DNA of 64,000 nucleotides from Desulfatiglandales bacterium (GTDB taxonomy: Bacteria > Desulfobacterota > DSM-4660 > Desulfatiglandales > Desulfatiglandaceae), in assembly GCA_963662465.1 (NCBI GenBank), contig OY759599.1, forward strand, positions 2,976,001 through 3,040,000, given 5' to 3'. The notes beneath the pieces were generated by a model, which made no database searches, had not been told where the DNA came from, and was given only the letters and a program-made list of their open reading frames with translations. Shown here piece after piece: positions 15,064 through 46,037 of this stretch. A program made the position numbers and the translations under genes. How positions within the stretch are numbered: position 1 is the first letter of the stretch; the number at the start of each line of letters is the position of its first letter.

Positions 15064-15337
15064 AGTAATCCTCATTTCTTTTGACCAGGGGCCGCAGAAA
15101 ATATTTGGCCACAATCACCAGAACCACGCAGGCCACAAAACCGTAAACCGCAAAAAATTCGGGCCACGCTTCCCATCCGAAATGGGGATGCTTGTGAAGC
15201 AGGAACTCTACGAGCAACAGCACCACAAGGGAGGCATAAAAGCAGCCCAGCAGAATTTTGACATTTTTGGGGTTGTCAAACAGATATTTTTTTTCAGGGT
15301 TTTCCCCATTAACGGATTCCGCTTCAGGCCTTTTCAT
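15056..15337 (-). CDS. Small two-TM membrane protein in the Mrp operon
   Basis: AGGAG RBS, two hydrophobic segments, EDYYD end overlapping the next start. Confidence 0.75.
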   Translation of the reverse strand: MKRPEAESVNGENPEKKYLFDNPKNVKILLGCFYASLVVLLLVEFLLHKHPHFGWEAWPEFFAVYGFVACVVLVIVAKYFLRPLVKRNEDYYD

Positions 15338-15376
15338 GGTTTTCTCCTTGCTAAAATAAATTTCGCAACCCGCAAT

Positions 15377-15484
15377 TCAAAAAAGAGTATTGTACAGGAT
15401 CAAAGCCAGATACAGGGATCCCACAGTGATGGCAATGAAAAAGGCCATTCGATACCCCGGCACGGGCTCATGAGACAATTCCAT
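15377..15484 (-). CDS. 35-aa single-TM protein MELSHEPVPGYRMAFFIAITVGSLYLALILYNTLF (not in ORF track)
   Basis: ATG to TGA read directly; fills the operon gap on the operon strand; purine-rich leader. Confidence 0.6.
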   Translation of the reverse strand: MELSHEPVPGYRMAFFIAITVGSLYLALILYNTLF

Positions 15485-15510
15485 TTTCTCTTCGTTTTCT
15501 TCGCTCAATA

Positions 15511-16989: not shown

Positions 16990-17010
16990 TAATCAGCCTA
17001 AAAAAACCTG

Positions 17011-18498
17011 TTAAAAGCCCTGTTTCAGTAAAAGGGGGTCAATGATGTGGTTCACGATACTGCCGGTGTAGAGCCCGATAACAATCAACCCCAGAGAAAC
17101 AATCAGTAACGACGCCAACATGGATATGGGCGCCTCCATTACCGTGATCGGTGATGAATCATGGCCGTGATTGTGGAAATCCCCGTAATAGCTGATCTCA
17201 ATCACCCTGAAAAAAAGGATGACATTGACCAGACTGCTGAATAGAAGCGCTGCCACAAACCCATATTGACCAGCCTGCAGCCCACCGGAGATGAGATACC
17301 ACTTGCTGAAAAAACCGCAGGTGGGGGGAACGCCGATGATGCTCAGGGCGCCTGCCACGAAACAGGCCATGGTCACCGGCATTTTGCGAAAGAGTCCCTT
17401 CAGTTGGTCAAGGTCAAGCCCGTGTATTTTATAATAGATGCTGCCCGCGCAGAGAAAAAGGCAGAGGGTCATGAGCGCATCGTTCATGATATGAAGAATG
17501 GCCCCGGTCATGCCGGCGTTGTTTCCCAGCCAGGCGCCCCCCATCATGTATCCGATTTCAGAAACAATAATATAGCAGAACATTCGTTTCAGGTTTTTCT
17601 GGGACAGGGCAAACACCGCGCCCATGACAATGGCCAGGGTTGACAGCCACACCATTGGGCTCCCCAGTTTCAGGATCACAAAGGCAAAATCCACCGAAAA
17701 TACGGTGAGAATAAGCCGAATCATCACATAGACCATCACCTTGGTCATGAGCGGTGCAATGAGACTGCCGGTCGCCGTGGGCGCGGAGGCGTAGGCATTT
17801 GGCAGCCACATGTGCAGCGGAAAAAACGCCATTTTGATGCCCACCCCCACCAGGCAGAAAATGAAGGCCATGACCACGGCAGGGCTATGAAACAACGGGG
17901 GCAGAAGGGATGCCACATCCGCCATGTTCAAGGACCCGGTCATGATATACAGAAACCCGACCCCCAGCAGATAAAAGCATCCACCCACTGTGCCCAGGAA
18001 AAGGTAATTCAAGGCGGCCATGGGGGCTCTCCCCGGCCCCAGGCCGATGAGGGCATAACTGGTCAGCGACGCGACCTCCAGGAGTACGTAAAGATTGAAC
18101 AGGTCTCCGGTCATCAGAATGCCCGTGAGACCTACAATGAAAAGCAGATAAAGGCTGTAAAAGGCGCCCGATTTTTCAGGCGTCTCCTCTGTCACGTTTT
18201 TCCGGGTGGCGATGAGGTTGATAAACGCCAGGACCGTGACCACCACCACCACCAGACCGTTTAGATAATCCACATGATAGCCGATTCCCCACGGGGTTTC
18301 CCAACCGCCCATGCGGTACTTCACCACACCGATTGCGGCCACCCGGCCCAACAGACACACCGAAAACCAGGCCGAAAGCCCCAGACCCAACAAAGTCAGG
18401 GGAAAACACAGGGCCTTTTTGATCCAGGCCGCCCCGCTAACCACAAAGGCAAACAGGAACGGCAAGACAACAATTAATGCGGGATAATGGTCTCTCAT
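17011..18498 (-). CDS. mrpD: Mrp antiporter subunit D-like
   Basis: GDLFNLYVLLE, KMAFFPLHMWLP. Confidence 0.9.
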   Translation of the reverse strand: MRDHYPALIVVLPFLFAFVVSGAAWIKKALCFPLTLLGLGLSAWFSVCLLGRVAAIGVVKYRMGGWETPWGIGYHVDYLNGLVVVVVTVLAFINLIATRKNVTEETPEKSGAFYSLYLLFIVGLTGILMTGDLFNLYVLLEVASLTSYALIGLGPGRAPMAALNYLFLGTVGGCFYLLGVGFLYIMTGSLNMADVASLLPPLFHSPAVVMAFIFCLVGVGIKMAFFPLHMWLPNAYASAPTATGSLIAPLMTKVMVYVMIRLILTVFSVDFAFVILKLGSPMVWLSTLAIVMGAVFALSQKNLKRMFCYIIVSEIGYMMGGAWLGNNAGMTGAILHIMNDALMTLCLFLCAGSIYYKIHGLDLDQLKGLFRKMPVTMACFVAGALSIIGVPPTCGFFSKWYLISGGLQAGQYGFVAALLFSSLVNVILFFRVIEISYYGDFHNHGHDSSPITVMEAPISMLASLLIVSLGLIVIGLYTGSIVNHIIDPLLLKQGF

Positions 18499-18884
18499 TC
18501 CGCCCTCAACTGCATGAGGATCTCATCTTCCTCAAGGGTCTTGTGCTTCTGGTAAATCTTGATGGCCAGGGCCAGGGCCACCCCGAAAGTGGATACGGAA
18601 ACCACAATGGCCGTCAGCATCAACACGTGGGGCAGCGGATTAATGTAATGGGTAGGATCGACACCGTGGTGACCGGCGCCGTGTTCCAGGATGGGGATGG
18701 TCGCCCCTTCTTTGCACCCAATGGACACATAGAAAAGAATAATGGAGGTTTGAAAAATATTCATCCCCACCAGTTTTTTAATGAGGTTATTCTTGGCAAT
18801 CATGGCGTAAAGGCCGATCATCATCAAAGCGATACAGAGCCAGTAATTGTATTTACCCAAGATGGCCACCGCCAAATCGCCCAT
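18495..18884 (-). CDS. mrpC: Mrp antiporter subunit C
   Basis: NPLPHVLMLTAIVV motif. Confidence 0.92.
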   Translation of the reverse strand: MGDLAVAILGKYNYWLCIALMMIGLYAMIAKNNLIKKLVGMNIFQTSIILFYVSIGCKEGATIPILEHGAGHHGVDPTHYINPLPHVLMLTAIVVSVSTFGVALALAIKIYQKHKTLEEDEILMQLRAE

Positions 18885-18887
18885 GTT

Positions 18888-19712
18888 CTACAACCCCTCA
18901 TCCTGCCTGCCTTCCGAAGACAGGTTGTTATAGATGGAAATCATGACCGCCATCACTGTGATGCCCACGCCGACCTCAACGCCCAGGATGCCCAATGATC
19001 GGGCTTCGATTTCGTTGGTAAACAGGATCTTGCTCAAGCCGGCGTAATCCAGAAAATTCCCACCCAGAAGGATGCAAAGCGCTCCGATACCCGAATAAAT
19101 AAGAACCCCCACGGCCATAAGGATATGGGTGGTTTTTTCACTGATGCGTCCGATGGCGGTGCGCATGTTGTAGCTGATGGCGATGAGAATCACGCCGGCG
19201 CCTAAAATCACGCCCCCCTGGAACCCGCCGCCGGGACTGTGATGGCCATGGGCGATCACATAGAGCGCAAAAAGCTGAACAAAGGGGACCAGGATTCTAC
19301 AGACCGTTGTGACAATCAGGTCATAGGGCGTCCACAGGGTGTCGATACGTTCAAACTCACTGGAAACATCGGGAATTCTGCCACTCTTGATGTGCAGGGT
19401 GATGCCGGTGGCGACATGCCGATAATAGCTGTCCTCGGGCCGACTCCGGAACAGCCTTAACAGAGCAAAGCACCCCAGGCCCGCGCAAAAAATGACGCTG
19501 GTTTCAAACATCGTGTCAAACCCGCGGTAATCAGCCAAAACAGCTGTCACCACATTGGGGACGGATGTTTCTTCAAGGGCATTTTTCAGGTGATGGGCGG
19601 AGATATGGGTGTTCGCCGGCGATGCGGGGTCACCCCAGGATGGAAAATCATGAGTGGTATAAACCAGAAGTGCCCCTGCCAGAATAACGATGCACAAGCC
19701 GATGGCCTTCAA
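18888..19712 (-). CDS. mrpB: Mrp antiporter subunit B, extended form
   Basis: NVVTAVLADYRGFDTMFE and HGHHSPGGGFQGG. Confidence 0.9.
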   Translation of the reverse strand: MKAIGLCIVILAGALLVYTTHDFPSWGDPASPANTHISAHHLKNALEETSVPNVVTAVLADYRGFDTMFETSVIFCAGLGCFALLRLFRSRPEDSYYRHVATGITLHIKSGRIPDVSSEFERIDTLWTPYDLIVTTVCRILVPFVQLFALYVIAHGHHSPGGGFQGGVILGAGVILIAISYNMRTAIGRISEKTTHILMAVGVLIYSGIGALCILLGGNFLDYAGLSKILFTNEIEARSLGILGVEVGVGITVMAVMISIYNNLSSEGRQDEGL

Positions 19713-19954
19713 TCCTTAGTCCTCCGGGTCGTTCGAAATACGGCGGCCACAAAAAAAACGGTACTGACGCCCGCGCCCACGGATGCTTCGGTAAACGCAA
19801 CATCCACCGCCCCCATGATGGCCCAAAGCAGGCACATGAGAAAACTATAGGCGCCGAACAAAATAGCGCAACCCAACAGGTCTTTCACCGAAATCGCCGC
19901 AACTGCCGCAAAAATAACCAGAAGCAAAATTACCAGATCCAGTTCCCAGATCAA
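19709..19954 (-). CDS. DUF4040-type Mrp subunit (MrpA C-terminal/MbhD-like)
   Basis: AVDVAFTEASVGAG motif; probable TTG start at 19954. Confidence 0.8.
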   Translation of the reverse strand: MIWELDLVILLLVIFAAVAAISVKDLLGCAILFGAYSFLMCLLWAIMGAVDVAFTEASVGAGVSTVFFVAAVFRTTRRTKD

Positions 19955-19958
19955 TTGT

Positions 19959-20303
19959 CTATTTCCCCCTGTCCTGTTTTGTCCAGGGTCTGAGGCCCGC
20001 CCTGAATCCCGCGTCCACAATGGCATGGGTAGCCGTGGGGCTCAGAATGAAAATGAAAAGCACGATGAGCAGGATTTTCAGGCTGGTGAGAAGGGCGCCC
20101 CATGAAAAATCATTGAGATTATAAAGGGCAATCCCCAGAACCATCAAAAGAGACCCAAGGGTATCCATCTTGCCGGCCGGGTGCAGCCGGGTATAAAAAT
20201 CCGGCAATCGGAGAATCCCCACCGCCCCGCCCGTAAAAAAGACCAGTCCGCAAATAAGCAGAAAAACCACAACAATATTCACAGCACTTCCCTCCTCAAT
20301 CAT
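19959..20303 (-). CDS. mrpG: Mrp antiporter subunit G
   Basis: RLPDFYTRLH, SPTATHAI. Confidence 0.92.
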   Translation of the reverse strand: MIEEGSAVNIVVVFLLICGLVFFTGGAVGILRLPDFYTRLHPAGKMDTLGSLLMVLGIALYNLNDFSWGALLTSLKILLIVLFIFILSPTATHAIVDAGFRAGLRPWTKQDRGK

Positions 20304-20322
20304 ACCGAACGGCTATGCCAAA

Positions 20323-20378
20323 ATCCGACTGCAGACCTCCGACCTCCGACCTCTGGTTACCGACCTCCGACTACCGAT
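20323..20378. repeat. Degenerate heptamer tandem array (CCTCCGA)n
   Basis: ctgcaga cctccga cctccga cctctgg ttaccga cctccga ctaccga between mrpF and mrpG. Confidence 0.85.
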
Positions 20379-20661
20379 AAGGCGGTTCTTCGTACAACCC
20401 CTTGCGTTTTTGGAAATACCTCGACGCCGCTAAAACCGCCACAAAATTGAGCAACGCGTAAGCCATGGCAATATCCACAAACATGTCCAGTCGTCCGTAA
20501 ATCAGACCGATCAGCAACAGGAGGATAACGGTCTTGCTGCCGATGGCATTAACGCCGATCAACCGGTCCAGAACCGTGGGACCAAATGCCGCCCGGTACA
20601 ATGAAGCGATCATCAGCAGACACAAATAGAGCGCCGCATAAAGAAAAATATCGGCCATCAT
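20371..20661 (-). CDS. mrpF: Mrp antiporter subunit F
   Basis: GPTVLDR motif, three TM helices. Confidence 0.92.
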   Translation of the reverse strand: MMADIFLYAALYLCLLMIASLYRAAFGPTVLDRLIGVNAIGSKTVILLLLIGLIYGRLDMFVDIAMAYALLNFVAVLAASRYFQKRKGLYEEPPYR

Positions 20662-21224
20662 CCGTCCTCAAAGGCTCTCGCCACCCTTTTTTCCATCTCT
20701 CCCGGAAGGGGCTCCCCGGATTTTTGGTCAATGGCATGCACGTGAAAAGTGCCGTTAACGGAAACGTACATGGTAATGGTGCCCGGGGTCAGGGTAATGG
20801 AGTTGGCAAAGGTCACCAGGGAAATCTCTTTTTTGAGTGTGCTGTCGAACCGAATGATCCGGGGATCGATCAATTCCATCATTCGGGGATGAAACACCAG
20901 ATACAAAACGTAGAGGTTGGCCACGCCCACCTGGTAAAGCAACCATGGGATATAGGCGATTACACGAAACCATTGCCGAAAGAGCCCTTTGGTCCTTGAT
21001 TGAGGAAACAGAAGATCCCCCGAAAAAATGCTGACAATAGCGCAGGAAATCACGCCGAGGCTCATGTGAAACAGGTCAAATTTTCCTGAAAGGATTACCC
21101 AGAGGCATAACAGGGCAATAAAAGTCAAAACGTATAAAGAAACAGGTCGTGCGGCGTCGGCAGGCCCGTCGCCAGACGCGTTTGCGAGGTTGAAGGTTGT
21201 CTCTTCCGGCAAATGTTCCTTCAA
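20658..21224 (-). CDS. mrpE: Mrp antiporter subunit E
   Basis: ANSITLTPGT motif. Confidence 0.92.
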   Translation of the reverse strand: MKEHLPEETTFNLANASGDGPADAARPVSLYVLTFIALLCLWVILSGKFDLFHMSLGVISCAIVSIFSGDLLFPQSRTKGLFRQWFRVIAYIPWLLYQVGVANLYVLYLVFHPRMMELIDPRIIRFDSTLKKEISLVTFANSITLTPGTITMYVSVNGTFHVHAIDQKSGEPLPGEMEKRVARAFEDG

Positions 21225-30514: not shown

Positions 30515-30652
30515 CAGGCCCAACTTCATTAAACCCTCGGCATTTTTCAATGATGAACTGACCATAGACCACCAGCGTAAAAAGTTCGCCCAGATTGGCA
30601 TCCTTGGCATCCTTCATTTCTCAGTTTATATTTACGGGTTTCTCATCATTCC

Positions 30653-30667
30653 CCTGTGAACGGTTAC
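30653..30667 (-). repeat. Dispersed end motif (CCTGTGAACGGTTAC)
   Basis: Identical to 39107-39121 and reverse complement of 32109-32123. Confidence 0.85.
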
Positions 30668-30674
30668 CCCTGGG

Positions 30675-32054
30675 CTATTCGCTTCCTGATTCCAGCCGTC
30701 CGTACTCCCAAAGATTACACATGACCCTTGCAGCACGCTCCGGCGTGGCATAATTGACCAGCGCCCCCGCGTTTTCAAGCGCCTCGATCTGAGCGTCCCA
30801 GATACCCGGCGGCGCCAGGATGCAACTCACCACAGGCTTTTTCTGACCCCATTCCATCAGCAACCCGCTGATTCCCTTCAATGCCTCCACATTGGCGGAT
30901 GCAAACATCATCAAAAACAGAATGCCGTGGACCCTCTCATCGTCCATGACGGCCTGAACAATCCCCTTAATGGCGTCTGAATCATACCAGGCCGGCCCCA
31001 TATCCACCGGATTGGTGCGAAGGGCCAGGGGGGGCAACAGGTCGTTGATTCGGACTTGGGTTTCCCCGCCAAACCGAACGATTTCAATACCTTCCGATTC
31101 ACACACATCGCAGGCGGCCATGGCCGGGCCTGCCTGCCCTGACAGCACCGCCACCCCAGGCCCTTTGGCAATGGGGCATGAGGCCAGGGCCTTGGCCGTA
31201 TCCAGCAAGGCCTGTGTACTGTCAACGGTCAGGATTCCCGCCTGTCTGAAGGCGTCCGTGTAAATTTCATGACGTCCCGCCAGGGAACCCGTATGAGAAC
31301 GGGCCGCTGCGTCCCCAACCGTGCCGCTGCCCGTCTTGTAGGCCACAACAGGCTTTTTTCCCCGGTGACGGGAAGCGGCGGCCAACAGATCTTTGGGAGA
31401 ATCGAGACCCTCCACATAAAGGGCCAGGACCCTGGTATCCGGATCTTCCACAAGATAGTCCACCATTTCCGCAAAATCCACATTCAGCCGGTTGCCCAGA
31501 CCCACAATCTTACTGAAACCCACGCCATCACGCATGGCCAAAAATCCCAGCAGATGAGAAATCCCGCCGCTCTGGCTCACCAACCCGACCGCCCCCGATT
31601 TCAATTGAGAAAACTCCGGGGTAAAGGAAGCGTTCAGACTTGCCATCAGGTTTACCATACCGAATGTGTTGGGTCCGATAACGGGGATGCCTGCCTCATT
31701 GGCAATACCGGCCACTTTCTCGTGGAGTTTTGCGCCGGCCGGATCATCGATCTCTTTGAAACCAGCTGTAATCAGGACAATGCCTCGAACCTTTGCGGTC
31801 GCGCACTCCCTGAAGACTTCCGGGACCCGTTGGGCAGGCACCACCACAACCACAAGGTCAATGACATCCTGAACCGCTGTTACGGAGGGCCATGCCTTGA
31901 AACCGAAAATCTCCCCAGCCCCCGGATTGATGGGGATAACAACACCTTTGAATCCACCATTCACAAGGCTCTTCATCACATGAAACCCGAGTTTTGACGG
32001 GTTATCCGATGCACCGACAACCGCAACCGACTTGGGATTAAACAGGGCATGCAT
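30675..32054 (-). CDS. NDP-forming acyl-CoA synthetase alpha-type (CoA-binding) subunit
   Basis: FNPKSVAVVGAS, GPNTFG, SQSGG, SHTGSLAG phospho-His, NPVD; start MHALF after GAAGGAG. Confidence 0.88.
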   Translation of the reverse strand: MHALFNPKSVAVVGASDNPSKLGFHVMKSLVNGGFKGVVIPINPGAGEIFGFKAWPSVTAVQDVIDLVVVVVPAQRVPEVFRECATAKVRGIVLITAGFKEIDDPAGAKLHEKVAGIANEAGIPVIGPNTFGMVNLMASLNASFTPEFSQLKSGAVGLVSQSGGISHLLGFLAMRDGVGFSKIVGLGNRLNVDFAEMVDYLVEDPDTRVLALYVEGLDSPKDLLAAASRHRGKKPVVAYKTGSGTVGDAAARSHTGSLAGRHEIYTDAFRQAGILTVDSTQALLDTAKALASCPIAKGPGVAVLSGQAGPAMAACDVCESEGIEIVRFGGETQVRINDLLPPLALRTNPVDMGPAWYDSDAIKGIVQAVMDDERVHGILFLMMFASANVEALKGISGLLMEWGQKKPVVSCILAPPGIWDAQIEALENAGALVNYATPERAARVMCNLWEYGRLESGSE

Positions 32055-32108
32055 AACACAATCTCCTTCCTTCTCCATGAACATTTTTTGTCGGATATTC
32101 GATATCTT

Positions 32109-32171
32109 GTAACCGTTCACAGGGTGCAGTTGTCAGCCTCCTGCCCCCTGACAACCGCACCCTGCCCCCTC
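32109..32171 (+). repeat. End motif GTAACCGTTCACAGG plus heptamer hairpin
   Basis: agggtgcagttgtcag pairs with ctgacaaccgcaccct (one mismatch). Confidence 0.85.
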
Positions 32172-35146
32172 TAAACAGTTTCCCTGACCCTTGGAAAACT
32201 CAGCGTAAACGTACTCCCTCTCATTTCCCAACTCTTCACATGGATGCGCCCACCATCATTTTTCACAATCTCATTGCTGATGCAAAGCCCCAGGCCCGCC
32301 CCTTTTCCGGCTTCCCGGGTGGTAAAAAAAGGCTCAAAAATCCTTTCCAACAAATCCCCGGGGATACCGATTCCCGTGTCGGACACGGAAACCTTGACCC
32401 GGTTTTGTTCCGTAAAAGATCGGATCGCAATGAGTCGTCCCTTCATCTCCTCATCGGATCCTTTTCCGGCGATAATGGCCTCGCCCGCATTGGAAATCAG
32501 GTTGTACATCACCTGTTCCAGTCGGTTGGCGTGACCGAAAATCAGGGGAAGATCCTCGTCCGGATCAAAGGTCGCCCGAATATCATCCAGCGATAATTGC
32601 GGCCCGATGATGGCCAGGGTTTTTCGAATCACCTCATTGAGGTTAACCTTTTCTTTTTCAAATCCCCGCTTTTCTTCCAGCTCCGTGAGACGATTGATGA
32701 TAACGGCAGCCCGGTCCACCTGCCCGCTGATCTCGGTAGACACCTGCAAAAGATGGTCGTCCGGAACCCTTTCCTTTCGCTGGGCCATCATTTTCAAAAA
32801 CTCACTCCCCACTTTGATGGCGTTCAGCGGCTGGTTCAACTCGTGCGCAATGGCGGGAGAAATACCGCCCATGGTGGGCATGAGACGAAGCAGGTCCCAC
32901 GCCGTTACCAGTTCCACATGAAGCATGATCGCCGGCAGGATGAACAAAGCCCCCACCAGCGACGCCAGCATGGTGGCCACCATGAGAAGGCCAAAGACCG
33001 CCGTGGGATTAAAATGGGAAAAAATCAGCACGGAAAACCCCATGCTGATGGCCAGGGTGGTGAATATAATCGGCCTTCCCACCCCGCGAATGGTGTCCTG
33101 GAGCGCCCGGTCCTTGTTCAGGTCTTTCTTGAACTCGCGGTTATAGCGAAACAGGTAATGAATGGTATCGTCCACGGCCAGACCGATGGCAATGCAGGCG
33201 ATAAGGCTGGTGGCAACGGAGAGCTCAATCCCCAGCCAACCCATGAGCCCAAAGCTCACCACAATGGGAAAAAGGTTGGGAAGGATGGCCATGACCCCCA
33301 CTTTCACGGAAAGGAACAGGAGCGACATGGCGGCAATGATGAGGACCAGGGTCAGGGAGAGGCTTTTCACCAGCCCCCGGGTCAACAGGCGGCTGCTTTG
33401 TGAAATCACAATCCCGAATCCGGTCACATGGCATTCAAAATCCTCTCCGAAATTCTGTTGAAGATAATCCCCGATCTCCTCCTTCAACGCCAGGAAATCC
33501 CGTGAGCTGGAGATATGGGTCCGAAGCAGGATGTTAGCTTTTTTAAGATCCTCGTCCATAAACCGACTGAACATTGCCTGCCCCAGCATGGTCTTATAAC
33601 TGTTGATCAGCATACGAATTTCAAATGATTCCGATGGGATTACGTAGGCGTCCTTGTTGTATTGACTGGCGCCGTAATTCACCAACTTAAGAAAATCCAC
33701 CAGGGAAATGGTCTTGTCGACCCCTTTCCTGGCGCTCAGGAAATCCTGAATCTCCGCAATCTGCTGGAGATGCCCGGGGTCTTCAAAATAGCCGTCAACC
33801 CTTGAATTCAACACCACGTTAACCGGAAAACTGCCCGCTGTTTGCCGGGAAACGTCTTCAAAATGACGGCTGATGGGCGTATCCTTTTTGAAAAAGCCCA
33901 CGGGATTCGTTTCCACTTTTATCTGGAAAATACCGCAGAGCGCAACGATGGTCACCATGGAAACCGCCGGCAATACCTTTTTCTGGTGACGCAGGTTCAG
34001 TTGCATAATCCAGGCAAGAAAACCGTTGATAACGCCGCGCCCCTGTCGGGAATCCATCTTGGCCTTGCGGGGCATGGAGAGGATTGAAAGTACTGCCGGC
34101 ACCGCGGTCAGCATCATCACGAGCATGCTGAGCAGACCGAAACAGGAGAAAGCGGCAAACTCCCGAATACTGTTGATCTGGTTCAGCATGAGGGAGGCCA
34201 GGCCGATAATGGTGGTGACCACCGCCAGAACCGTTGGAAATCGGACCTGAATAAAACATAAATACACCGCTTCCCTGGAAGAATCCGCGTTCAGGGCCGA
34301 CGATCGATATTCGGAAAAGAGGTACATGCAGTACGCAGTGCCCACCGCAATGAGAAAAATGGGTACAATCATGGTCAGCAGGGAAAGCGGCCTTTGGGTC
34401 CAGGCCATCATGCCGAAAGTCCAGATCAATGCGGACAGGACGGCGCCGGTGGGGATCAATACGGATCTGACATCCCGAAACAGGCATAGGAGAACAATGG
34501 CCATCACCACGAAGGTGATGGGCGGCAGTTGCAGAAAATCCCTTTCGGTATAGGCGGCAAGGGCCTGGGAAACCAGCGGCATGCCGATCTGGTAAAGGGA
34601 AAGACCTTCATTCTCTTTTTGAAGTATTTTCTCAATGGCATCGATAATCGGCGCTTTATCGGATACGTCTTCCAGAATAACCGAAAAAATGGTGGTCTTT
34701 TGGTCTTCCGAGAGAAAATTCCGTTCGAAGAGTTCGATGGGAACGATGATTTCCTTGAATTCATCCAGGGACCATCGGGAAGTAAGATCCATATCCCGTT
34801 TGATTCCCGGAAGGCTCAGAACCTTTGTCACCCCTGGAATTTTTGAGATCTCGCCGGCAATGACGGCCAATCGCTGAAAGGTTTCCGGCGCAAAGACATT
34901 CTCGGCCTTTGCCGCCACGAGGATCATTTCCTCGCTGCCGAACATCTTTTTAAATTCGCGATAATAGATACTTTCCGGCAGGTCCCGGATGGCCAGATCA
35001 TAAATGGATGTCTGAAAACGAAGGTTCGGCAGCTTCGCAGCGAAAAGCAGGGTCGCCAAAACGATCAGGATCAATACCGGAACAGGATGTCGGATCACGA
35101 ATCGAAGTCGCCGGCCGGAATTCAATGTGCGAAATATGCCTGCCAT
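32171..35146 (-). CDS. MMPL/RND-family transporter fused to a C-terminal histidine kinase
   Basis: Two MMPL halves (GLAVDDTIH) then [33 protein letters not shown] in one 991-aa ORF. Confidence 0.88.
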   Translation of the reverse strand: MAGIFRTLNSGRRLRFVIRHPVPVLILIVLATLLFAAKLPNLRFQTSIYDLAIRDLPESIYYREFKKMFGSEEMILVAAKAENVFAPETFQRLAVIAGEISKIPGVTKVLSLPGIKRDMDLTSRWSLDEFKEIIVPIELFERNFLSEDQKTTIFSVILEDVSDKAPIIDAIEKILQKENEGLSLYQIGMPLVSQALAAYTERDFLQLPPITFVVMAIVLLCLFRDVRSVLIPTGAVLSALIWTFGMMAWTQRPLSLLTMIVPIFLIAVGTAYCMYLFSEYRSSALNADSSREAVYLCFIQVRFPTVLAVVTTIIGLASLMLNQINSIREFAAFSCFGLLSMLVMMLTAVPAVLSILSMPRKAKMDSRQGRGVINGFLAWIMQLNLRHQKKVLPAVSMVTIVALCGIFQIKVETNPVGFFKKDTPISRHFEDVSRQTAGSFPVNVVLNSRVDGYFEDPGHLQQIAEIQDFLSARKGVDKTISLVDFLKLVNYGASQYNKDAYVIPSESFEIRMLINSYKTMLGQAMFSRFMDEDLKKANILLRTHISSSRDFLALKEEIGDYLQQNFGEDFECHVTGFGIVISQSSRLLTRGLVKSLSLTLVLIIAAMSLLFLSVKVGVMAILPNLFPIVVSFGLMGWLGIELSVATSLIACIAIGLAVDDTIHYLFRYNREFKKDLNKDRALQDTIRGVGRPIIFTTLAISMGFSVLIFSHFNPTAVFGLLMVATMLASLVGALFILPAIMLHVELVTAWDLLRLMPTMGGISPAIAHELNQPLNAIKVGSEFLKMMAQRKERVPDDHLLQVSTEISGQVDRAAVIINRLTELEEKRGFEKEKVNLNEVIRKTLAIIGPQLSLDDIRATFDPDEDLPLIFGHANRLEQVMYNLISNAGEAIIAGKGSDEEMKGRLIAIRSFTEQNRVKVSVSDTGIGIPGDLLERIFEPFFTTREAGKGAGLGLCISNEIVKNDGGRIHVKSWEMRGSTFTLSFPRVRETV

Positions 35147-35161: not shown

Positions 35162-35557
35162 TTAAGAGCCTTCATCACGCCCGGGTCCATTGCGCAGTAT
35201 TTCTTCGGCTCGGGTCAAAGCCGCATCAAGCGCTTCTTTCTGAACGGGCTTATGAATAAAATCCGTCGCCTTAAGATCCAATGCCTTTCCGGCCAGCTCC
35301 TTGTCCCCATGGCCCGTAATCACAATGACCACGGCGTCGGGGGAAAATATTTTGATCCGCTTTAAAACTTCAAAGCCGTCCATACCCGGCATTTTGATAT
35401 CCGTAAACACAATGCCGGGCTTTTCCTTTTCAAATACCCGTATCCCTTCTTCGCCGTTTTCGGCCGTCAAAACCTCGAAGCCATAGGCCTCCAGAAAAAG
35501 CCGAAACATGGCCAGGGTAGGTTTTTCATCATCAATAATCAAGACCTTCCGCATCAA
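35162..35557 (-). CDS. Single-domain response regulator
   Basis: IDDE, TDIKMPG, ITGHG, HKP; overlaps the stop of the upstream kinase. Confidence 0.92.
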   Translation of the reverse strand: MMRKVLIIDDEKPTLAMFRLFLEAYGFEVLTAENGEEGIRVFEKEKPGIVFTDIKMPGMDGFEVLKRIKIFSPDAVVIVITGHGDKELAGKALDLKATDFIHKPVQKEALDAALTRAEEILRNGPGRDEGS

Positions 35558-37476
35558 TTTCTCCTTAATGAATCCATCTGCGGCAATCGCACGACAAACG
35601 TGGTTCCGATCCCCGTTCCACTGTGTACACGAATATCGCCCCCATGCTCCACAACAATTTCATAAACGATCGCCAGTCCCAGGCCCATCCCCTTTCCCAC
35701 TTCCTTGGTGGTGAAAAAGGGCTCAAAAATCTTATCGCGGGCATCTTTTGATATCCCCGAACCGGTATCCGAAATAGCTATAACGATCTGGCCATTTTTT
35801 GAAAATGACCGAATGCCGATTCTGCCGCAAACCCTCTCGCCAATAGTTTCGCACTTTTGAACAATGGCGTCGCGCGCATTGGTCAGCAGGTTGAAAATCA
35901 CCTGTTCCAGGCGATTTTTGTGGGCCAGGACCGAAGGAATGTTTTTGCCTGGAAGAAACCTGAGATCAACATCCTGAAGCTTCAATTGCGGACCGATAAG
36001 CTTTACAACATTTTCAATAGGGCTGTTGATGGAGACCTCCTCCCTGCTGAAATCCGCTTTCCTGGCAAATTCCCGCAAACGGGTAATAATCTCGGATGCC
36101 CGGTCCACTTGGTCGCTCACCTGTCCTGCTACCTGGGCCAAGTCTTTCGTTGGAATCGCCCTGCCCTGTTCCACCATCAGGGTCAAAAAATCGCTCCCCA
36201 TTTTAATGGCATTCAACGGCTGATTGAGTTCGTGGGCAATGCCCGCGGACATTTCTCCCAGACTTTTCATTTTGCCGGCCTGAATCAACTGCGCGTCCTT
36301 TTCCATGATTTCAGTAATATCACTGGTGGCCAGAACGATCACGTCCCGGCCCTGATAAAGGCCCGGACAGGCCCGCACATTCACGTAGAAGGGCCGGCGT
36401 CCTTTCCGGTAATGCCGCGCCCTCGAACTCACCACGCAGACGCTGGCCATGGCCTTTTCCCCAAGGGTCTCGCTATTCCAGTCCCCATATTCAAAAACGC
36501 CCAGATCGCTGAAAGATCGACCGATCAGATCCTCCCTGGCGTACCCGTAGGTTTCAGCCGCGGCCAAATTGGCATCCAGAATCTCAAACCCCTTCCGGGC
36601 CACCACAAAAACGGGATTGGGGCCGCTGTCAAAAAGGGAACGGTATTTCTGCTCGCTTTCCTTGAGCTGCTCCCTGCCTGCCCTGAGAGATGCGGTCATA
36701 TGGTTAAAGGCGCCTGCCAGTTGCTCTATTTCATCGCCCCAATGGTTTTTGTAGACGTCGCTCTCACTGCCTGAAGCGGGTTCCGTCTCCAGATTGCCCA
36801 GACTGATCTCGTTGGCCCGTCGAATCAGTTCCCCCATGGGCCGGGTGATGTATCCGGAAAGCCAGTGGGCAATACCGAAAAAAATGAGAATAATAACGGA
36901 GATGAAGCCCAAGAATGTTATTCGAAGCCGACCTACAATTTCATCAATATACCCTTTGCTCAACCCTACATGGACGGCGCCGATTTGTGAAGCGCCCTCT
37001 TTCAAGGGAAACGTGATATCATAAGCGGATTCTTTGCCGAAAGAAAGCCGTTCGATACGGTGGGACCGTCCGGGACCGACCCGCTTGACCTGAAGCAACG
37101 CTTCGGGAAAACCACCGTCAAAGGTATGGGCCAGTACCTCTCCATCCTGGTCCAGAACGAACATGTAGGAAATCAGCGACTCCCGATTTCCAAGTCGGGA
37201 GGCATCAAAGAGCAATCGGTTTAAGGCATCCCTGTTCACTTTCAGGACATGGGCCTTGCTCTCCTCGGCAACGCTTTGTGCAATACCCACTCCCCGCTGC
37301 TCCATTCGCGTGATCAGGCTCGAAACCAGCACCCATCGCGCCACCAGAGCAATGCCGACACTGATCAGGAGAATCACGGCCACGGAGGCAAAAAATATTT
37401 TGTTTTTGTGGCTCAGCCGACGCAAAGATCCGAGGGACATCACAATGCCGCTGATGGCGTCCTTCATGATTTTCAT
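35554..37476 (-). CDS. Membrane HAMP-PAS sensor histidine kinase
   Basis: Two TM helices, periplasmic domain, [23 protein letters not shown]. Confidence 0.9.
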
Positions 37477-37676: not shown

Positions 37677-38972
37677 TTATCCCCCGGAAGAGCCAATGAT
37701 TTGCATGGTCAGGACCTGCGTCGCAGCGCTGTCGATGCCGCCCACAGCGACGATATTCTGATCCCGCTGAATGGCCGCGGCTTCAGCCCAGTCATCTCCC
37801 TGCCCCAGGTTGAAGCTTGCCACACCGCCGTTACCGAAATCCTCATCCGCAACGCCATCGGCATCGTATCGCAAAACAAGGGCATCATAATCCGTGCCGT
37901 TGTAGGTATTGCCGGCCACGACAATCTCATCCCCCTGCTGAAGACACAGCCTTCGACCATTGTCGTTTCCAGTGCCGCCGTCATAAATCACCACCCCGTC
38001 CGTGCCAAACCCTGAATCCAGTGACCCGTCTGAATTGTATCTGAGAAGGACCACATCCAGATCACTCCCGTTGCTGTTGCTGCCCGACACAACGATTTTT
38101 CCATCTGACTGAATGACGATCCCCCGTGCGCCGGCATTTCCGTGCCCTCCGTCATATCGGACGATTCCGGCCGTGCCGAATGAATTGTCGAGGATGCCGG
38201 CGGCATCGTATCTTGCAGTCAGGAGTTCAAAGCCTTCATCCGTGCTGGTGTAGCCCGTCACAACCATTTTTCCATCCGACTGAATGGCCAGGTCGCGAAA
38301 TCCGTCGTTCCCCTTTCCACCTTCATAGGAGACAACCCCATTAAGCCCGAATGAATCGTCCAGGGAACCATCCTTTTCATATCTCAGGACCATAGCGATG
38401 GATGTTCCATCCCCCGTGCTTCTCGCCGTCACAAGGATACTGCCGTCCCCTTGAACCGCGATGGCCCGACCATAGTCATCCCTGCCGGCATTATCGTAAA
38501 GGACAATGCCGTCCGTGCCGAAAAATGGGTCCAAAGTTCCATTCGCATTCAAGCGCATGAGCAGCATGTCCACATCATTGCCGTTATGGGCATATCCCGT
38601 CAGGGTAATTTTGCCGTCCGAATCCACGACAACCAAACGCCCGCAGTCGTTTCCGTTGCCGCTGTCATAAATGAAAACCCCGTCTGTCCCGAAGGTGGTG
38701 TCCAGGGTCCCATCCGGGTTGTATCGCAAAACGCCTACATCCGAGTCCGTACCGTTCAATATTCCCGTTGAAACCAAAATCTTATGGTCCATTTGAATGG
38801 CCGTTCCCACATAGGAATCCTTGTTCCAGACCCCGTAGAGCGCATATCCGTCCGGAGCATTGAAGGTCGCATCCAGATCGCCCTGCTGCTTCCCGGTGGG
38901 ATTTGGATTGGATGAGGATGAACTGCAGGCGGACAAAACACAGAAAAAAATACAGAACAGCAGTCTCTTCAT
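37677..38972 (-). CDS. Delta-60 repeat (beta-propeller-like) lipoprotein
   Basis: Lipobox LSAC; about seven repeats of Q.DGKI...RY..DG.LD..FG..G. Confidence 0.88.
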   Translation of the reverse strand: MKRLLFCIFFCVLSACSSSSSNPNPTGKQQGDLDATFNAPDGYALYGVWNKDSYVGTAIQMDHKILVSTGILNGTDSDVGVLRYNPDGTLDTTFGTDGVFIYDSGNGNDCGRLVVVDSDGKITLTGYAHNGNDVDMLLMRLNANGTLDPFFGTDGIVLYDNAGRDDYGRAIAVQGDGSILVTARSTGDGTSIAMVLRYEKDGSLDDSFGLNGVVSYEGGKGNDGFRDLAIQSDGKMVVTGYTSTDEGFELLTARYDAAGILDNSFGTAGIVRYDGGHGNAGARGIVIQSDGKIVVSGSNSNGSDLDVVLLRYNSDGSLDSGFGTDGVVIYDGGTGNDNGRRLCLQQGDEIVVAGNTYNGTDYDALVLRYDADGVADEDFGNGGVASFNLGQGDDWAEAAAIQRDQNIVAVGGIDSAATQVLTMQIIGSSGG

Positions 38973-39358: not shown

Positions 39359-40276
39359 TTATGCCACATCGGATTTATTCAAATCACGAATTTCATAAAC
39401 CTCTTCCTCCTTCAACGCCTCAAATCCCGAAATAATATCCAGAAGCTCACTGGTGATCGCTGCCTGGCGCTGCTCCCGGAAGAGGGCCTGCAAGTCATCC
39501 TGAAGCTCCAGAATGTTTTTTTCGGCGGCCTGCATGGCCATAAGCCTGGCCGCGTTCTCACCGGCCAGAGACTGGGCGAAGGCCCTGTAAAAGGAGATAA
39601 AGAGATACTGCCGAAAGAGGTGGGCAAACATGGTTTCCCGGTTGGATCCCAGCATGGGCAGGCAGCGGTTGGGCCATGGGGCGCCGCCATAATCTTTGGC
39701 CCAGGAGGCGTCCAGGGGCAGAAGCCGTTGAAACACCGGCACGTACCCGCCCTGCTCCCCCAACACATGGTGGCACAGATAGAGGGTCTCCAGTTTTTTG
39801 GCGGACCGCCATTCCTCCACCTTCCCAATGGCCTCCTGAACCCTTTCGGTAACGGCATTCAAACTTCCCGGCGCCGGAAAATGAACAGGGTTGGGAACAC
39901 CCGCGTCCTCCAGCATACCGTGAACTTTTTCCCCCAGGCTCCAGTAATCCCAGTTCCGCCCCTGAACCGCCCGCTCCTTTATCTGTTCCTGCAGAAAGGG
40001 CCAAAGGGACTCGTTGAACTGGCCGCACATGCCCTGGTCGCTTCCCACCACGAGGCAGACATCCCCCTGGTTCCGGGACGGGGAAAGTGTGGGACGGCCC
40101 ATTCTCAGAAAAACCGACCACCCCATGTCCACCACGGCCCGGTATTGTTCCAGGGATTCCACGGCCCGTTCAAACTGCCGAATGTTCACCGCGGCCAGGC
40201 TTTTCATGGTCTTGACCACTCCCAGCAGGTCCTTTGCGGTCTTGATCTTTCGGTTCAGGGATTCCAGCGTCTGCAT
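39359..40276 (-). CDS. atpG: N-ATPase gamma subunit
   Basis: [39 protein letters not shown]. Confidence 0.95.
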
Positions 40277-41822
40277 GGTCTTCCTTCATCAGCTTGAAGG
40301 GGGCCAGCACCCCCTCCATAAGCGTGGTCAACTGTTTCCATAAAGGATCATCTTTTTCAGCGCGCAAAACGGCGTTTTCAAGGTCCGGGATCTCGGCTTT
40401 CACTTTTTCAAGGACAGCCGCCTCCGCCTCCACCACTTTTTCAACGGGAACCTCGTCCATGAGCCCGCGCGCCACCGCCAGCAACACCGCGATCTGCTCG
40501 CCGGAGGCAAGGGTTGAAAGCTCTCGCTGCTTTAGGGCCTCCCGAACCCGTCGGCCGTGTTCCAGCGTTTTCCGGGTCCGATCGTCCAGCCGGGTGCCGA
40601 ACCGGGCAAAGGCTTCCAGTTCCTGGAACTGGGTGTAGGAGAGCCGCAAATCCCCCGCCACCTGCCGATAGGCGGAAATCTGGGCCTTGCCCCCCACCCG
40701 GGATACGGATTTACCCACATCCACCGCCGGCAGCACGCCTTTCTGAAAAAGGTCCGGGGACAAATAGATCTGGCCATCCGTAATGGAGATGAGGTTGGTG
40801 GGAATATAGGCGGAGATGTTCTGGGCCTCGGTCTCGGCGATGGGGAGCGCCGTGAGGGATCCACCCCCCCGCTCTTCCTTGAGATGGGTGGAACGTTCCA
40901 GAAGCCTGGAATGGACATAAAAAATGTCCCCGGGAAAGGCTTCACGGCCCGGGGGACGTCTAAGCAGGAGGCTCAACTGCCGGTAGGCCAGGGCATGACG
41001 GGTCAGGTCATCGTAAACGATAAGCACGTCTTTGCCCTGTTCCATGAAATATTCACCCATGGTGGTGGCAGCGTAGGGAGCAATAAACTGAAGGCCGGGC
41101 GGATCATCCCCTTCCACCACCACCACCACGCTGTAGCCAATGGCCCCCTGTCGTTCCAGCTCGGCCACCACCTTGGCAATGCCGGAACTGCGCTGGCCGA
41201 TGGCACAATAGATACAGAGGACATCCTTCTGGTTGACCATGGCATCCAGGGCCACGGCGGTTTTGCCCGTCTGTCGATCCCCCAGAATCAACTCCCGCTG
41301 CCCCCGACCGATGGGAATAAGGGCGTCCACCACCTTGAGCCCGGTCTGAAGGGGCTTCACCACCGGCGCCCGATCCAAAATCCGTGGGGCTTCCCGCAGT
41401 ACCATCCAGCGCTCCCGCGCTTCAGGAATCCCCTTGCCGTCCAGGGGCCGGCCCAGGGGGTCCACCACCCTGCCGATCAATTGATCCCCCACGGGCACGT
41501 CCAGAACCCTGCCACTGCGCAGCACCTGGTCTCCGGCACTCACCGCTTCGGTGGAACCAAACAGGATGATCCCCACGCGATCGGGCAGAAGATCCAGAAC
41601 CATGCCCGAAATATCAGGCCCCACCGTCACCAGCTCTTCCGATTGGACCTGTCCCAGACCATCGGCCCAGACAATCCCCTGGTCCACTGATTTGACCCGA
41701 CCCACTTCCTGCTGTTTAAGGGTTGGAGAAAAATCTGAAATCCCCTGTTGAACGGCCCGGTCAACAGACTCCAGCACATCCTGAAGCCCGCTTTTTTCCG
41801 ATGTTTCAATTCCTTCGGTCAT
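40170..41822 (-). CDS. atpA: N-ATPase alpha subunit (reads 107 nt into atpG)
   Basis: [25 protein letters not shown]; likely start MTEGIE. Confidence 0.95.
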
Positions 41823-42574
41823 GATTTCACCAAAGCGTCTTTGAACAGGTTTTCCATGATTTCCTTTTCCAGGTCCTGAAGATAGTCGGCCAGGTGCCAT
41901 GCCACCTTGCGGTCTCCGGCCACCACTTGAATGCCGAAACCCAGTTCCGGCGCCGGTTCTATTTGTATGCGGTTTTCACCCGGAAACCATTGGCTGAGAC
42001 GCTCTTTAAGGGTCTTTGCGTCATCCGCTTCAAGGGGAATGCCGGACTGAACCACCACGCCCCCTTTCACCGCATTCCGGGTCAATTCGTCCCTGACATG
42101 GGAGACCTTTTCAAGAAATACCCGGCACACCTGGCGATTCAAGTCCTGATCCGCCAGATCCCGAATGACCTTTCCACCAATGTGCATGACCTGTTCCACC
42201 ATGCGCTGTCTGAGTCCGTCCAGGAAGGCCCGCCGGTCCCGCGTCATGTTGGCCAGCCAGGCGCCCTGAAGGGTTTCCACTTCGTTCCTGGCGCCCTTGA
42301 GCGTCTCCTCACGCCATTTGGCCACCTGATCCCGGGCTTCCAGCATCAGCCCGTCACGGGCGTTTGCAAGGTCCGCTCTCTCCTTTTCGAGGGCCGAAGC
42401 CCTTTCCTCCGCCTTCTGTTCGGCCTGTTCAGCCCGGTTCAACGCCTGGGCAATGGTCTTTTCCCGCTCCGCAATGGCCCGAAGGATCGGTTTAAATAAA
42501 AACCGCTTCAGGAGCCAGATCAGAATCAGGAAATTAACGATCTGGGCCAGGACCGTGAACCAATTGATCAGCAC
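41819..42574 (-). CDS. atpF: N-ATPase b subunit, long form
   Basis: [15 protein letters not shown], coiled coil, delta-like C-terminus. Confidence 0.92.
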
Positions 42575-42577
42575 AAC

Positions 42578-42856
42578 TTATCCCCCTGCCTTGGTCAGGA
42601 AGTATTTCCAGAAAGGGTTGGCGAAAATGAGAATCATGGACACCACAAAACAGTAGATGGCCGTTGATTCCACCATGGCCATGCCTACGAAGAGGGTTCG
42701 GGTGATGGTGTTGGTCTCATCCGGCTGCTGGGCAATGGAACTGAGCGCCTGGGCCAGTGCCCGCCCCTCGCCCAGGGCAGGCCCCACGGCGCCGATGCCC
42801 ATGCCGATGCCCGCCGCCAGAATTGACGCCACCGCGATCCAACCTAATGCATCCAT
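42578..42856 (-). CDS. atpE: N-ATPase c subunit with Na+-binding signature
   Basis: GPALGEG in helix 1 and ESTAIY in helix 2. Confidence 0.95.
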   Translation of the reverse strand: MDALGWIAVASILAAGIGMGIGAVGPALGEGRALAQALSSIAQQPDETNTITRTLFVGMAMVESTAIYCFVVSMILIFANPFWKYFLTKAGG

Positions 42857-42887
42857 CGTGTGTCTCCTTTATGGTTGTTTATTGAAA

Positions 42888-43556
42888 TCATTGTCCCGCC
42901 TCCATCCCCGCGCTGATATAAACCGCCGCCAGGATAGCAAAAATATAAGCCTGCACCAGCCCCGTCAACAGTCCCAGGAGCTGCATGAGGATGGGAAAGA
43001 TCAGGGGGGCAATAATCAGCAGAATGCCCCCGATCATGGAACTGCTCATGACGTTTCCGAAGAGTCGCACGGACAGCGCCAACGTCCGGCTCAATTCTCC
43101 CATGATATTAAAGGGCAGCATGAAGGGCGTGGGACGCAGATAATTTTGAAGATACCGCCCAAACCCAATTTCTCCGATCCCGTAGATGGGCACCGCCGCA
43201 AATACGCAGCCGGCAAGACCCGCCGAGGTGGAAAGGGACCCGGTGGGCGGCTCAAAACCGGGGATAATGGAGAGCAGATTACACACGGCGATAAACAAAA
43301 AAAGGGTTCCCAGGAAGGGGAGTAACCCCTTGGGTTGATGGGGCGAAATCTCCCGAAGCTGCTGATCGATGCCGTGAACCACCACCTCCAGCACATGCTG
43401 CACCCGTGAGATATGCACCCCCGTGCCCAATCTCCGCGTCACCAGCCAGGACCCCACCGTGAGCAGCGCCATGACAACCCAGGTGAACAAAATGGTGCTG
43501 TTCAATTCAAACAAGCCGAAACGCCACCAGATATGATCATCAGGACTGAGCTGCAT
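42888..43556 (-). CDS. atpB: N-ATPase a subunit
   Basis: LSRTLALSVRLFGN, VQAYIF. Confidence 0.95.
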   Translation of the reverse strand: MQLSPDDHIWWRFGLFELNSTILFTWVVMALLTVGSWLVTRRLGTGVHISRVQHVLEVVVHGIDQQLREISPHQPKGLLPFLGTLFLFIAVCNLLSIIPGFEPPTGSLSTSAGLAGCVFAAVPIYGIGEIGFGRYLQNYLRPTPFMLPFNIMGELSRTLALSVRLFGNVMSSSMIGGILLIIAPLIFPILMQLLGLLTGLVQAYIFAILAAVYISAGMEAGQ

Positions 43557-43842
43557 GCTCTTTTTCTCCGTTTTTGGGACCCAGGACGCGGGTCAGAATA
43601 ATTCTAACGCCGAAAAAAGCCACAACCGTAAAGAGAAGCGCCACACCACCCTTTTGAACCACAATCCAGAAACCGGCCAGAACCCCGGCCACACGCACCA
43701 GATAACTGACCGCCAGCCGGCGTTTGGGGCACTTCTTCCCCGGCATTGTCTTCAGGGTCATCCATAACCCCCCGAAATAGAACAACCCCAGGACCACACC
43801 CCACAAAAAAGCCAGTCCCCACAGAGTCACATCACAACGCAT
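43540..43842 (-). CDS. atpR: N-ATPase subunit AtpR
   Basis: FYFGGLWMT motif, two intramembrane Arg, position between atpQ and atpB. Confidence 0.85.
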   Translation of the reverse strand: MRCDVTLWGLAFLWGVVLGLFYFGGLWMTLKTMPGKKCPKRRLAVSYLVRVAGVLAGFWIVVQKGGVALLFTVVAFFGVRIILTRVLGPKNGEKEHAAQS

Positions 43843-43860
43843 CCATTTCTCCTATGTCCG

Positions 43861-43900
43861 CCCTCTGACCTCCGACCTCTGCCCCCTGACCTCCGACCTC
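43861..43900. repeat. Heptamer tandem array (CCTCYGA)n
   Basis: cctctga cctccga cctctgc cccctga cctccga between atpQ and atpR. Confidence 0.85.
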
Positions 43901-44208
43901 ACCCTTCCCGCTCCCGATTAATGGCGCTCCGCTGCCGATTAATCCAGAACCACGCATTAAGACAGCCCACAATCAGGCCGATCATGAGGAGCATGAGGGT
44001 CCAGGAATAGGAACTCGGCCATTTCAAATCGATCCACACCCCCAGAAAAATGCCCAGCACCGTGGGAATAGCCACGGCCCATCCCACCACGCCGAAAAGC
44101 CCCAAACCGAACCACACCTCGTCGGTCTTCCGGTTCCGGGCCCGCAGTTTGCGTTTCTCCCGGATGTCGATCTCCCGGGAAAAGCGTTTTCCGTGTTTTG
44201 CCGCATCA

Positions 44209-44216
<8 letters not shown>
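43899..44216 (-). CDS. atpQ: N-ATPase AtpQ (AtpZ/AtpI family)
   Basis: WFGLGLFGVVGWAVAIPT..G.WID; start MPDDA. Confidence 0.88.

Positions 44217-46037
<1,821 letters not shown>

Follow-up and report, generated by a model that had tools for sequence, protein, structure and literature searches.

Can a membrane transporter serve as the sensor of a histidine kinase to which it is covalently joined? This question is raised by a gene in a window of 64,000 nucleotides from a Desulfatiglandales bacterium (assembly GCA_963662465.1, contig OY759599.1, positions 2,976,001 to 3,040,000), where a single open frame of 991 amino acids (P0001; 32171..35146, minus strand) encodes an MMPL/RND transporter body followed by a histidine kinase. 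An earlier note on this DNA had proposed a 'transceptor' that responds to flux or lipids. Here, we find that the fusion is a conserved family of the Desulfobacterota, including cultured Desulfatibacillum, and neither a chance product nor a misassembly. Of the earlier proposal, the fusion itself proved real and the transporter as sensor emerged as the best single reading, whereas its argument from TM4 to reduced transport did not find support and the signal, lipid or proton state, is putative.

Architecture and distribution of the fusion

The frame starts with ATG, preceded by a GGA-containing stretch that resembles a ribosome-binding site. Its first part, the MMPL/RND body (approximately residues 11-741; 32924..35116, minus strand), was delimited by AlphaFold, Foldseek and repeat alignment and is predicted to consist of 12 membrane helices in two repeats, with two periplasmic domains after helices 1 and 7, which is the layout of the RND/MMPL fold. 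Pfam MMPL matches the protein twice (E 3e-38), and the top Foldseek matches of the body are MmpL5 and MmpL4 (target TM-score 0.74-0.79, E ~1e-23, ~15% identity). Matches to the Pfam families Patched and Sterol-sensing are also present and reflect the common fold, not orthology. The best NCBIfam match, TIGR00921 (HAE3), stays below its curated cut-off (233.6 versus 351.9), as does the HpnN model TIGR03480 (110.8 versus 751.85). The second part comprises a DHp (HisKA) domain with H768 (32672..32857, minus strand; Pfam HisKA at residues 765-825, 28 bits at a cut-off of 26.9) and a HATPase_c domain with N, G1, F and G2 boxes (Pfam, residues 872-986; 32189..32533, minus strand). The boxes read H768 (AHELNQP), N886, D923-x-G925-x-G927, F940 (FEPFF) and G951-x-G953. 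In the AlphaFold model, built from an alignment of 81 sequences (mean predicted local distance difference test (pLDDT) 80, predicted template modelling score (pTM) 0.68), transmembrane helix 12 (TM12) ends near residue 741 and the DHp helix starts near 764, so that about 22 residues (742-763, LHVELVTAWDLL...; 32858..32923, minus strand) link the two parts. The Pfam scan matched no HAMP, PAS, STAC or other sensor domain in the protein. The earlier description of one frame with two MMPL halves and a complete kinase, joined almost without a linker, is thus borne out by Pfam, the kinase boxes and the predicted structure, in which the 12-helix body leads into the DHp helix through a junction of low model confidence.

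How firmly are the two parts coupled? We aligned 81 of the 120 homologue matches plus the query, all full-length and hand-picked across the list (~50% overall identity). H768, N886, D923, G925, G927, F940, G951 and G953 are invariant (81/81), in line with the intact boxes described in the earlier note, and residue 769 is E or D in 80/81. This pattern is that of a class I (HisKA) histidine kinase that is probably catalytically intact. The spacing from P738 to H768 is exactly 30 residues in 81/81 sequences. Mean pairwise identity is highest at the junction (0.83 over residues 742-755), followed by TM8-12 (0.70), TM2-6 and DHp (0.56) and the periplasmic and ATP-binding domains (0.49-0.55). A junction of fixed length and such strong conservation would fit mechanical coupling. 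It has to be weighed against loose tethering, in which transporter and kinase are largely independent and the fusion merely co-localises them. We consider such a simple tether improbable, because a passive linker would neither hold 30 residues in 81/81 sequences nor be the best-conserved segment. It would agree with the low model confidence of the linker, with tails that were apparently exchanged more than once (see below) and with CbrA, whose transport is independent of its kinase and whose kinase activities are left unchanged by histidine, according to PMC7096432.

The H-box is present in 119 of the 120 best homologues listed, which are 49-93% identical, and the remaining one (P0040) stops just past the junction. 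Homologues that are always encoded as separate genes, which the earlier note had regarded as counter-evidence, are not what we found. The fusion is encoded in a cultured Desulfatibacillum genome (ACL03972.1, which NCBI names 'MMPL family transporter' and UniRef 'histidine kinase'), and the ESM Atlas contains one cluster of 186 members with MMPL plus HATPase_c, mainly from Thermodesulfobacteriota. Matches that cover the whole protein without stops, hand-counted from match tables, occur in 15/149 genomes of the window's order, in 20/201 genomes of the order of genome G037 and in 2/301 genomes sampled evenly across the phylum. The nearest named relatives are a Desulfatiglandales metagenome-assembled genome (93%) and the delta proteobacterium NaphS2 (72%). 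Contigs of two samples cross the junction near 32900, the site at which the earlier note had advised a check of coverage: a short-read contig, whose source sample is probably the same, covers 30600-34951 without any difference, and a contig of the second sample spans the linker (32730-32930) with zero differences. Assembled contigs of two RNA runs covered small shares, mostly of other strains. An artefact of assembly or read-through that joined two genes has a negligible chance of explaining more than 100 full-length homologues, the occurrence in cultured isolates, the contigs over the junction and genome matches free of internal stops. A longer form of 1446 amino acids at locus L066 was not treated as real; its N-terminal part overlaps a hydrogenase gene in a different frame.

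Candidate proton site and probable common receiver

Has the transporter body given up transport? The earlier note had read TM4 as GTAYCMY, which are indeed the letters of this segment (I266-Y275, IAVGTAYCMY, with AVGTAYCMY at residues 267-275; 34322..34351, minus strand; placed by alignment to the solved MmpL4/5), and had taken the motif to indicate that transport may be reduced. A271 aligns to the TM4 Asp of MmpL4/MmpL5 and Y272 matches the retained Tyr; the two residues are found in 81/81 and 80/81 fusion proteins. The internal repeat pairs A271-Y272 with D659-D660 on TM10 (G655-E671; 33134..33184, minus strand), a segment that is a candidate proton site by its conservation, with D659, D660, H663 and E671 in 81/81 and R667 in 77/81 sequences. 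T311, T312 and T696 are also conserved in the fusion family. The proton gate of MmpL3 comprises D256/Y257 and D645/Y646, with R653/E656 below (PMC13280996). In place of its Asp-Tyr pairs on TM4 and TM10, the fusion has Ala-Tyr on TM4 and Asp-Asp on TM10; as the TM4 Asp is replaced by Ala and the TM10 Tyr position by Asp, both acids lie on TM10. We searched the MMPL part alone against 1.84 billion cluster representatives and excluded 19 fragments from the best 150 matches. Asp at position 271 was present in 1/60 unfused relatives, TM4 266-273 was without an acidic residue in 41/60, and D659 and D660 were kept in 59/60 and 46/60, respectively. GTAYCMY is hence a subfamily trait that is uninformative on lost transport, since unfused relatives (59/60) are also devoid of the TM4 Asp. 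Reduced transport does not follow from the motif, D659-D660 being kept in 81/81 fusion proteins, and transport may well be retained.

To which regulator would the kinase signal? A gene for a single-domain receiver of 131 amino acids (35162..35557, minus strand; Pfam Response_reg) lies 15 bp upstream of the fusion gene and overlaps by 4 bp the gene of a partner kinase, HK2 (640 amino acids; 35554..37476, minus strand), in which Pfam identifies the order sCache_3-HAMP-PAS-HisKA-HATPase. HK2, receiver and fusion gene likely form an operon. HK2 and the fusion have 47% identity in their kinase cores, compared to at most 35% for the other kinases of the genome, and the two cores cluster together in a tree, apart from 28 other kinases of the genome. 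The helix of the H-box is established to set the choice of receiver. Over the 20 residues from the His, the fusion of the window and HK2 share 16/20, whereas other kinases share 4-9/20; identity to the local HK2 averages 15.7/20 over 23 pairs. As both kinases have this specificity helix in common, the adjacent receiver is likely the target of both. Specificity residues changed in both kinases together in two loci and without a counterpart in four, and we drew no conclusion from this pattern.

To compare loci, we grouped genes into lineages at 80% identity, which resulted in 39 kinase lineages, of which 29 have flanks of 6 kb or more, and 43 lineages of a sibling form with a domain for binding cyclic nucleotide monophosphates (cNMP), 34 of them with enough flank. 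HK2 plus receiver stand beside the fusion gene in 23/29 kinase lineages and a receiver orthologue is found in 24/29. The sensor of HK2 differs by lineage: PAS beside a group 2 hydrogenase, Cache together with a periplasmic binding protein, or Cache alone, as in the window. Cache-type HK2 occurs in 11/29 and the binding protein in 7/29 lineages. In a few lineages (L038:6820-7542, L046, L118, L121), the receiver carries a C-terminal STAS domain, a hint at a possible partner-switching output. Cache-type HK2 of some loci (L118:6819-8849, L035, L045, L047) carries a cysteine-rich insert (CW...C...CPA...CW...C..C) within HAMP, which is possibly metal- or redox-binding; in HK2 of the window, the HAMP insert is short and cysteine-free.

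Siblings with a cNMP tail and their neighbours

The genome of the window also encodes a paralogue of 915 amino acids (G000:C1:6006618-6009365; L016:10618-13365), whose body is 56% identical with the same GTAYCMY and which has a cNMP-binding domain in place of the kinase. It sits between the gene for the large subunit of a [NiFe] hydrogenase and that for the corresponding maturation protease, with formate dehydrogenase-like and cytochrome c3-like genes nearby. Long non-kinase tails were found in 66 cluster representatives, and a Pfam scan of 51 matches assigned nearly all long tails to cNMP domains with or without a GGDEF-like domain; two were LolA-like. P0254 and P0262 are distant MMPL relatives with a fused LolA-like domain. 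The junction motif is common to the kinase form and the cNMP-tailed siblings, not to unfused relatives: 61/66 long-tailed non-kinase relatives carry it compared to 2/62 short-tailed proteins, both of which are truncated cNMP forms. In loci retrieved with the kinase-form alignment, the 174 genes of the clade split into 70 with kinase, 101 with cNMP tail and 3 that are cut or broken. A second match stopping near residue 756, like the cNMP form, is present in 10/15 kinase-bearing genomes of the window's order, and at L045, L078 and L048/L076 (one contig) genes of both kinds lie within ~15 kb around one hydrogenase cluster. In a tree of the bodies only (FastTree, 110 rows), kinase and cNMP forms are interleaved. 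A single origin of the kinase-bearing body was rejected by the approximately unbiased test (p ~1e-45; 18 kinase rows versus 17 others), which was run with LG+G4 on a quick tree of 35 rows picked after viewing the 110-row tree. The kinase-bearing bodies thus appear not to be one clade, and the interleaving would be explained equally by repeated tail exchange or by gene conversion between paralogues.

What would a cNMP domain do at this position? The cNMP pocket with its phosphate-binding motif is intact in 87/89 parsed tails. Among the GGDEF-like extensions, GG[DE]EF is present in 0/76, by which an active diguanylate cyclase was rejected for the sibling, and an RxxD-type site is kept in 69/76. 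A structure model presents the cNMP form confidently as one unit (pLDDT 92, pTM 0.86) with a junction helix at 750-758. Judged from these motifs, the tail looks like a second-messenger receptor without enzymatic output. A receptor that acts on the transporter is therefore the basis of the main rival explanation, by which the protein is a working transporter and its tail a switch: cyclic AMP (and cyclic di-GMP) would gate the sibling via the same junction, and in the kinase form the phosphorylation state of DHp, possibly set by pairing with HK2, would gate transport. Besides the features of the tail, the full retention of the candidate proton residues and class III nucleotide cyclase genes beside 5/34 cNMP lineages speak for such control from the cytoplasm; the cNMP loci L083, L090, L100 and L102 contain STAS, anti-sigma-type ATPase and class III cyclase genes. 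Yet, N, G1, F and G2 do not vary, although a gate could do without an intact ATP-binding domain; conservation extends to the cognate receiver next to the fusion gene; and cNMP binding by the sibling is a prediction. Partner genes, too, count against it. The three unfused HAE3-like RNDs of the genome each adjoin LolA-like and DUF1302 genes, the flanking partner types being LolA-like, DUF1302, DUF1329 and YCF48, and no homologue of these carrier or outer-membrane partners was found by tblastn in the fused-clade loci among 184 searched (E 1e-4, seven distant queries). We hold control of transport by the tail to be possible, if rather doubtful. It does not exclude a transporter acting as sensor, since an allosteric link can run both ways. 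The earlier note had considered neither this direction of control nor the sister kinase HK2 or the cNMP-tailed sibling.

Which genes accompany the two forms? Names in our locus maps derive from BLAST to reference open reading frames, with labels partly from sequence. Counting any hydrogenase gene, 18/29 kinase and 28/34 cNMP lineages lie in [NiFe]-hydrogenase clusters, the cNMP sibling often being located between large subunit and protease or after hypE and apbE. In 11/29 kinase lineages, the neighbours include a group 2-type hydrogenase pair, assigned by the best solved-structure match plus Pfam/NCBIfam scans; the neighbouring large subunit is nearest to the group 2 enzyme 7utd/7uus (E 4e-115, versus 3e-70 for group 1). 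Group 2b is described in HydDB as kinase-linked H2 sensors and group 2c as putatively cyclase-linked (PMC5037454). In the window, the gene directly downstream of the fusion encodes an alpha-type subunit of acyl-CoA ligase (ADP-forming) (30675..32120, minus strand), and neighbours within the genus of the window comprise acyl-CoA ligase, radical SAM and thioesterase genes as well as beta-ketoacyl-synthase-like genes, the latter named by reading their sequences only. Such a context with genes resembling fatty acid synthesis, together with a fold known from lipid and sterol movers, would suit a dedicated receptor for lipids or acyl compounds that has lost transport, the strong form of what the earlier note had proposed. 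We regard this as quite unlikely. Unfused relatives in general lack the TM4 Asp as well, conservation is lower in the periplasmic domains than in the TM8-12 half, and the acyl-CoA ligase is limited to the window's own lineage (3/29 kinase lineages); beyond the genus, the usual neighbours are hydrogenase genes, which leaves the lipid sensing of the earlier note a conjecture. A promoter and terminator scan was uninformative, with fewer sites than in shuffled sequence.

Further upstream in the window lies an F-type ATP synthase operon (39359-46028, minus strand; order beta, ..., a, c, b, alpha, gamma), in which subunits c, alpha and gamma were verified by Pfam and whose order and c-subunit motif resemble those of a Na+-type N-ATPase. 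In the 93% relative (L001), the fusion gene is not accompanied by this operon. Between it and HK2, a predicted lipoprotein with delta-60 (DUF5122) repeats is encoded (37677-38972, minus strand). A run of membrane-protein genes (13291-21224, minus strand) resembles, to a reader of the bare sequence, a multisubunit Mrp-type cation/proton antiporter.

As a side finding, group 1-type [NiFe] large subunits near the MMPL genes contain an in-frame TGA in the N-terminal Ni motif, for example in L031 (near 7600), L054 (near 5900), L117 and L136. Among 63 readable copies, not dereplicated, the N-terminal motif is CxxU-type in 37, UxxU-type in 10 and all-Cys in 16; the copy of the window's genome is all-Cys; the C-terminal CxxC is all Cys, and the best NCBIfam match is NF033181 (Cys form of L007). 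An identical hairpin ~15 nt downstream (mean -11 kcal/mol) occurs in 47/47 TGA copies, compared to 1/16 Cys copies. The TGA likely encodes selenocysteine, or UGA is read as Cys. In PMC13582414, N-terminal selenocysteine is reported for group 4 and the selenocysteine of groups 1 and 3 is placed predominantly in the C-terminal motif; an N-terminal position in group 1 may thus be unreported.

Preferred reading and known systems

Following this argumentation, we suggest a transporter-derived sensor kinase, in which sensing falls to the RND body, whose proton-coupled state tunes the kinase. We give this reading about an even chance and consider the transporter as sensor the best single explanation, because the fixed-length conserved junction fits mechanical coupling. 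The kinase core would dimerise and become autophosphorylated at H768. A conformational change of the RND body would travel via TM12 and the ELVTxWDL helix into the DHp bundle, where it would determine the balance of kinase and phosphatase. Fused kinase and HK2 would converge on one single-domain receiver (a receiver-STAS protein in a few lineages) and thereby integrate two inputs, one from the RND body and the other from HK2 with its lineage-dependent sensor. The favoured RND input would be the proton-coupled state, which would depend on how energised the membrane is and on whether a hydrophobic membrane ligand is bound; a sensor of lipids alone has a somewhat lower chance. A more specific version, in which the TM10 Asp-Asp pair reads the proton gradient from a neighbouring periplasmic hydrogenase and the junction helix is an allosteric socket for interchangeable tails, seems unlikely to us. 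If it were true, the kinase tail would report outward while cNMP and cyclic di-GMP receptor tails control inward, the kinase form would sense membrane energisation directly, its signal would be combined on one receiver with that of an H2 or solute sensor, and RND signalling of the Patched/SCAP type would have a prokaryotic counterpart.

Several points weigh against the transporter as sensor. At residues 747-765, the pLDDT of the kinase-form model is below 50, too low to settle the geometry of the junction or to support structural coupling. The receptor-like tail of the sibling would point in the opposite direction, and the tblastn search for partner genes was insensitive. No hydrogenase gene is present at the fusion locus of the window, and BLASTP found no group 2 hydrogenase in its genome (best 27-29% to a group 1 enzyme). 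Synteny with hydrogenase genes may stem from a duplication within the cluster, and the lineages behind our neighbourhood counts are kin, not independent. In CbrA, finally, fused transport and kinase are only loosely coupled (PMC7096432).

Why does this family matter? Bacterial RND/MMPL proteins count as pumps, while receptors occur among their eukaryotic relatives, and databases label the fusion proteins merely 'MMPL family transporter' or 'histidine kinase'. A single body and a single conserved junction are combined with tails of two kinds, which frequently occur in the same genome, and Desulfatibacillum provides a cultured host; this amounts to a natural experiment. It makes testable how the cytoplasmic side reads or controls the conformational cycle of an RND protein, and the family points towards a layer of regulation, so far unstudied, in the hydrogenase clusters of Desulfobacterales and Desulfatiglandales.

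How does the fusion relate to known systems? Patched and SCAP are eukaryotic proteins that use the RND/sterol-sensing fold in signalling without a fused kinase; signalling use of an RND-derived body would be common to them and the fusion, which differs by its attached kinase. Regulatory hydrogenases with kinases, such as HupUV-HupT and HoxBC-HoxJ, represent group 2b. Unlike these, the fusion loci have an additional RND-fused kinase and a single-domain receiver, and the BLASTP search of the window's genome gave no group 2 enzyme. The group 2-type pair with a PAS kinase beside the fusion in 11/29 lineages recalls the H2-sensing systems of group 2b (PMC5037454). With the HAE3/COG1033 RNDs AmeD of Castellaniella defragrans and HpnN, the fusion has the 12-helix body in common; it differs by its signalling tail and sub-cut-off scores, and AmeABC-like partner genes were not found in the seven-query search (PMC6394551). 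The mycobacterial MmpL3/4/5 are the best structural matches and share the TM4 Tyr, the TM10 Asp and a TM10 Arg eight residues on, whereas the fusion has Ala for the TM4 Asp and Asp for the TM10 Tyr, at ~15% identity (PMC13280996).

Closest in design is Ks-Amt5 of Ca. Kuenenia stuttgartiensis, in which, according to PMC5764959, a whole transporter is likewise attached straight to DHp/CA without PAS, HAMP or STAC and is the sole possible sensor, to which we liken the RND body. Ks-Amt5 differs by its Amt fold and a demonstrated loss of transport, whereas the candidate proton residues of the RND body are kept and the fusion locus also encodes a sister kinase and a receiver. The SLC5/STAC kinases CbrA, CrbS and RpuS also combine a secondary transporter and a histidine kinase in one chain (PMC7096432, PMC5715377 and PMC9100948), with an SLC5 fold and a STAC linker (plus PAS in CbrA) in contrast to the RND fold, the ~22-residue linker and the single-domain receiver described here. 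SLC5, STAC and Amt gave no Pfam match in the fusion protein, whose fold is that of RND. We found no description of an RND/MMPL-kinase fusion in the open literature searched, a scope from which subscription papers and supplements were left out. The fusion would work like Ks-Amt5 and the SLC5/STAC kinases yet belongs to neither, and its transporter fold is new to this kind of protein: in the literature covered, transporter-kinase fusions have so far been characterised for the SLC5 and Amt folds, to which RND/MMPL is now added.

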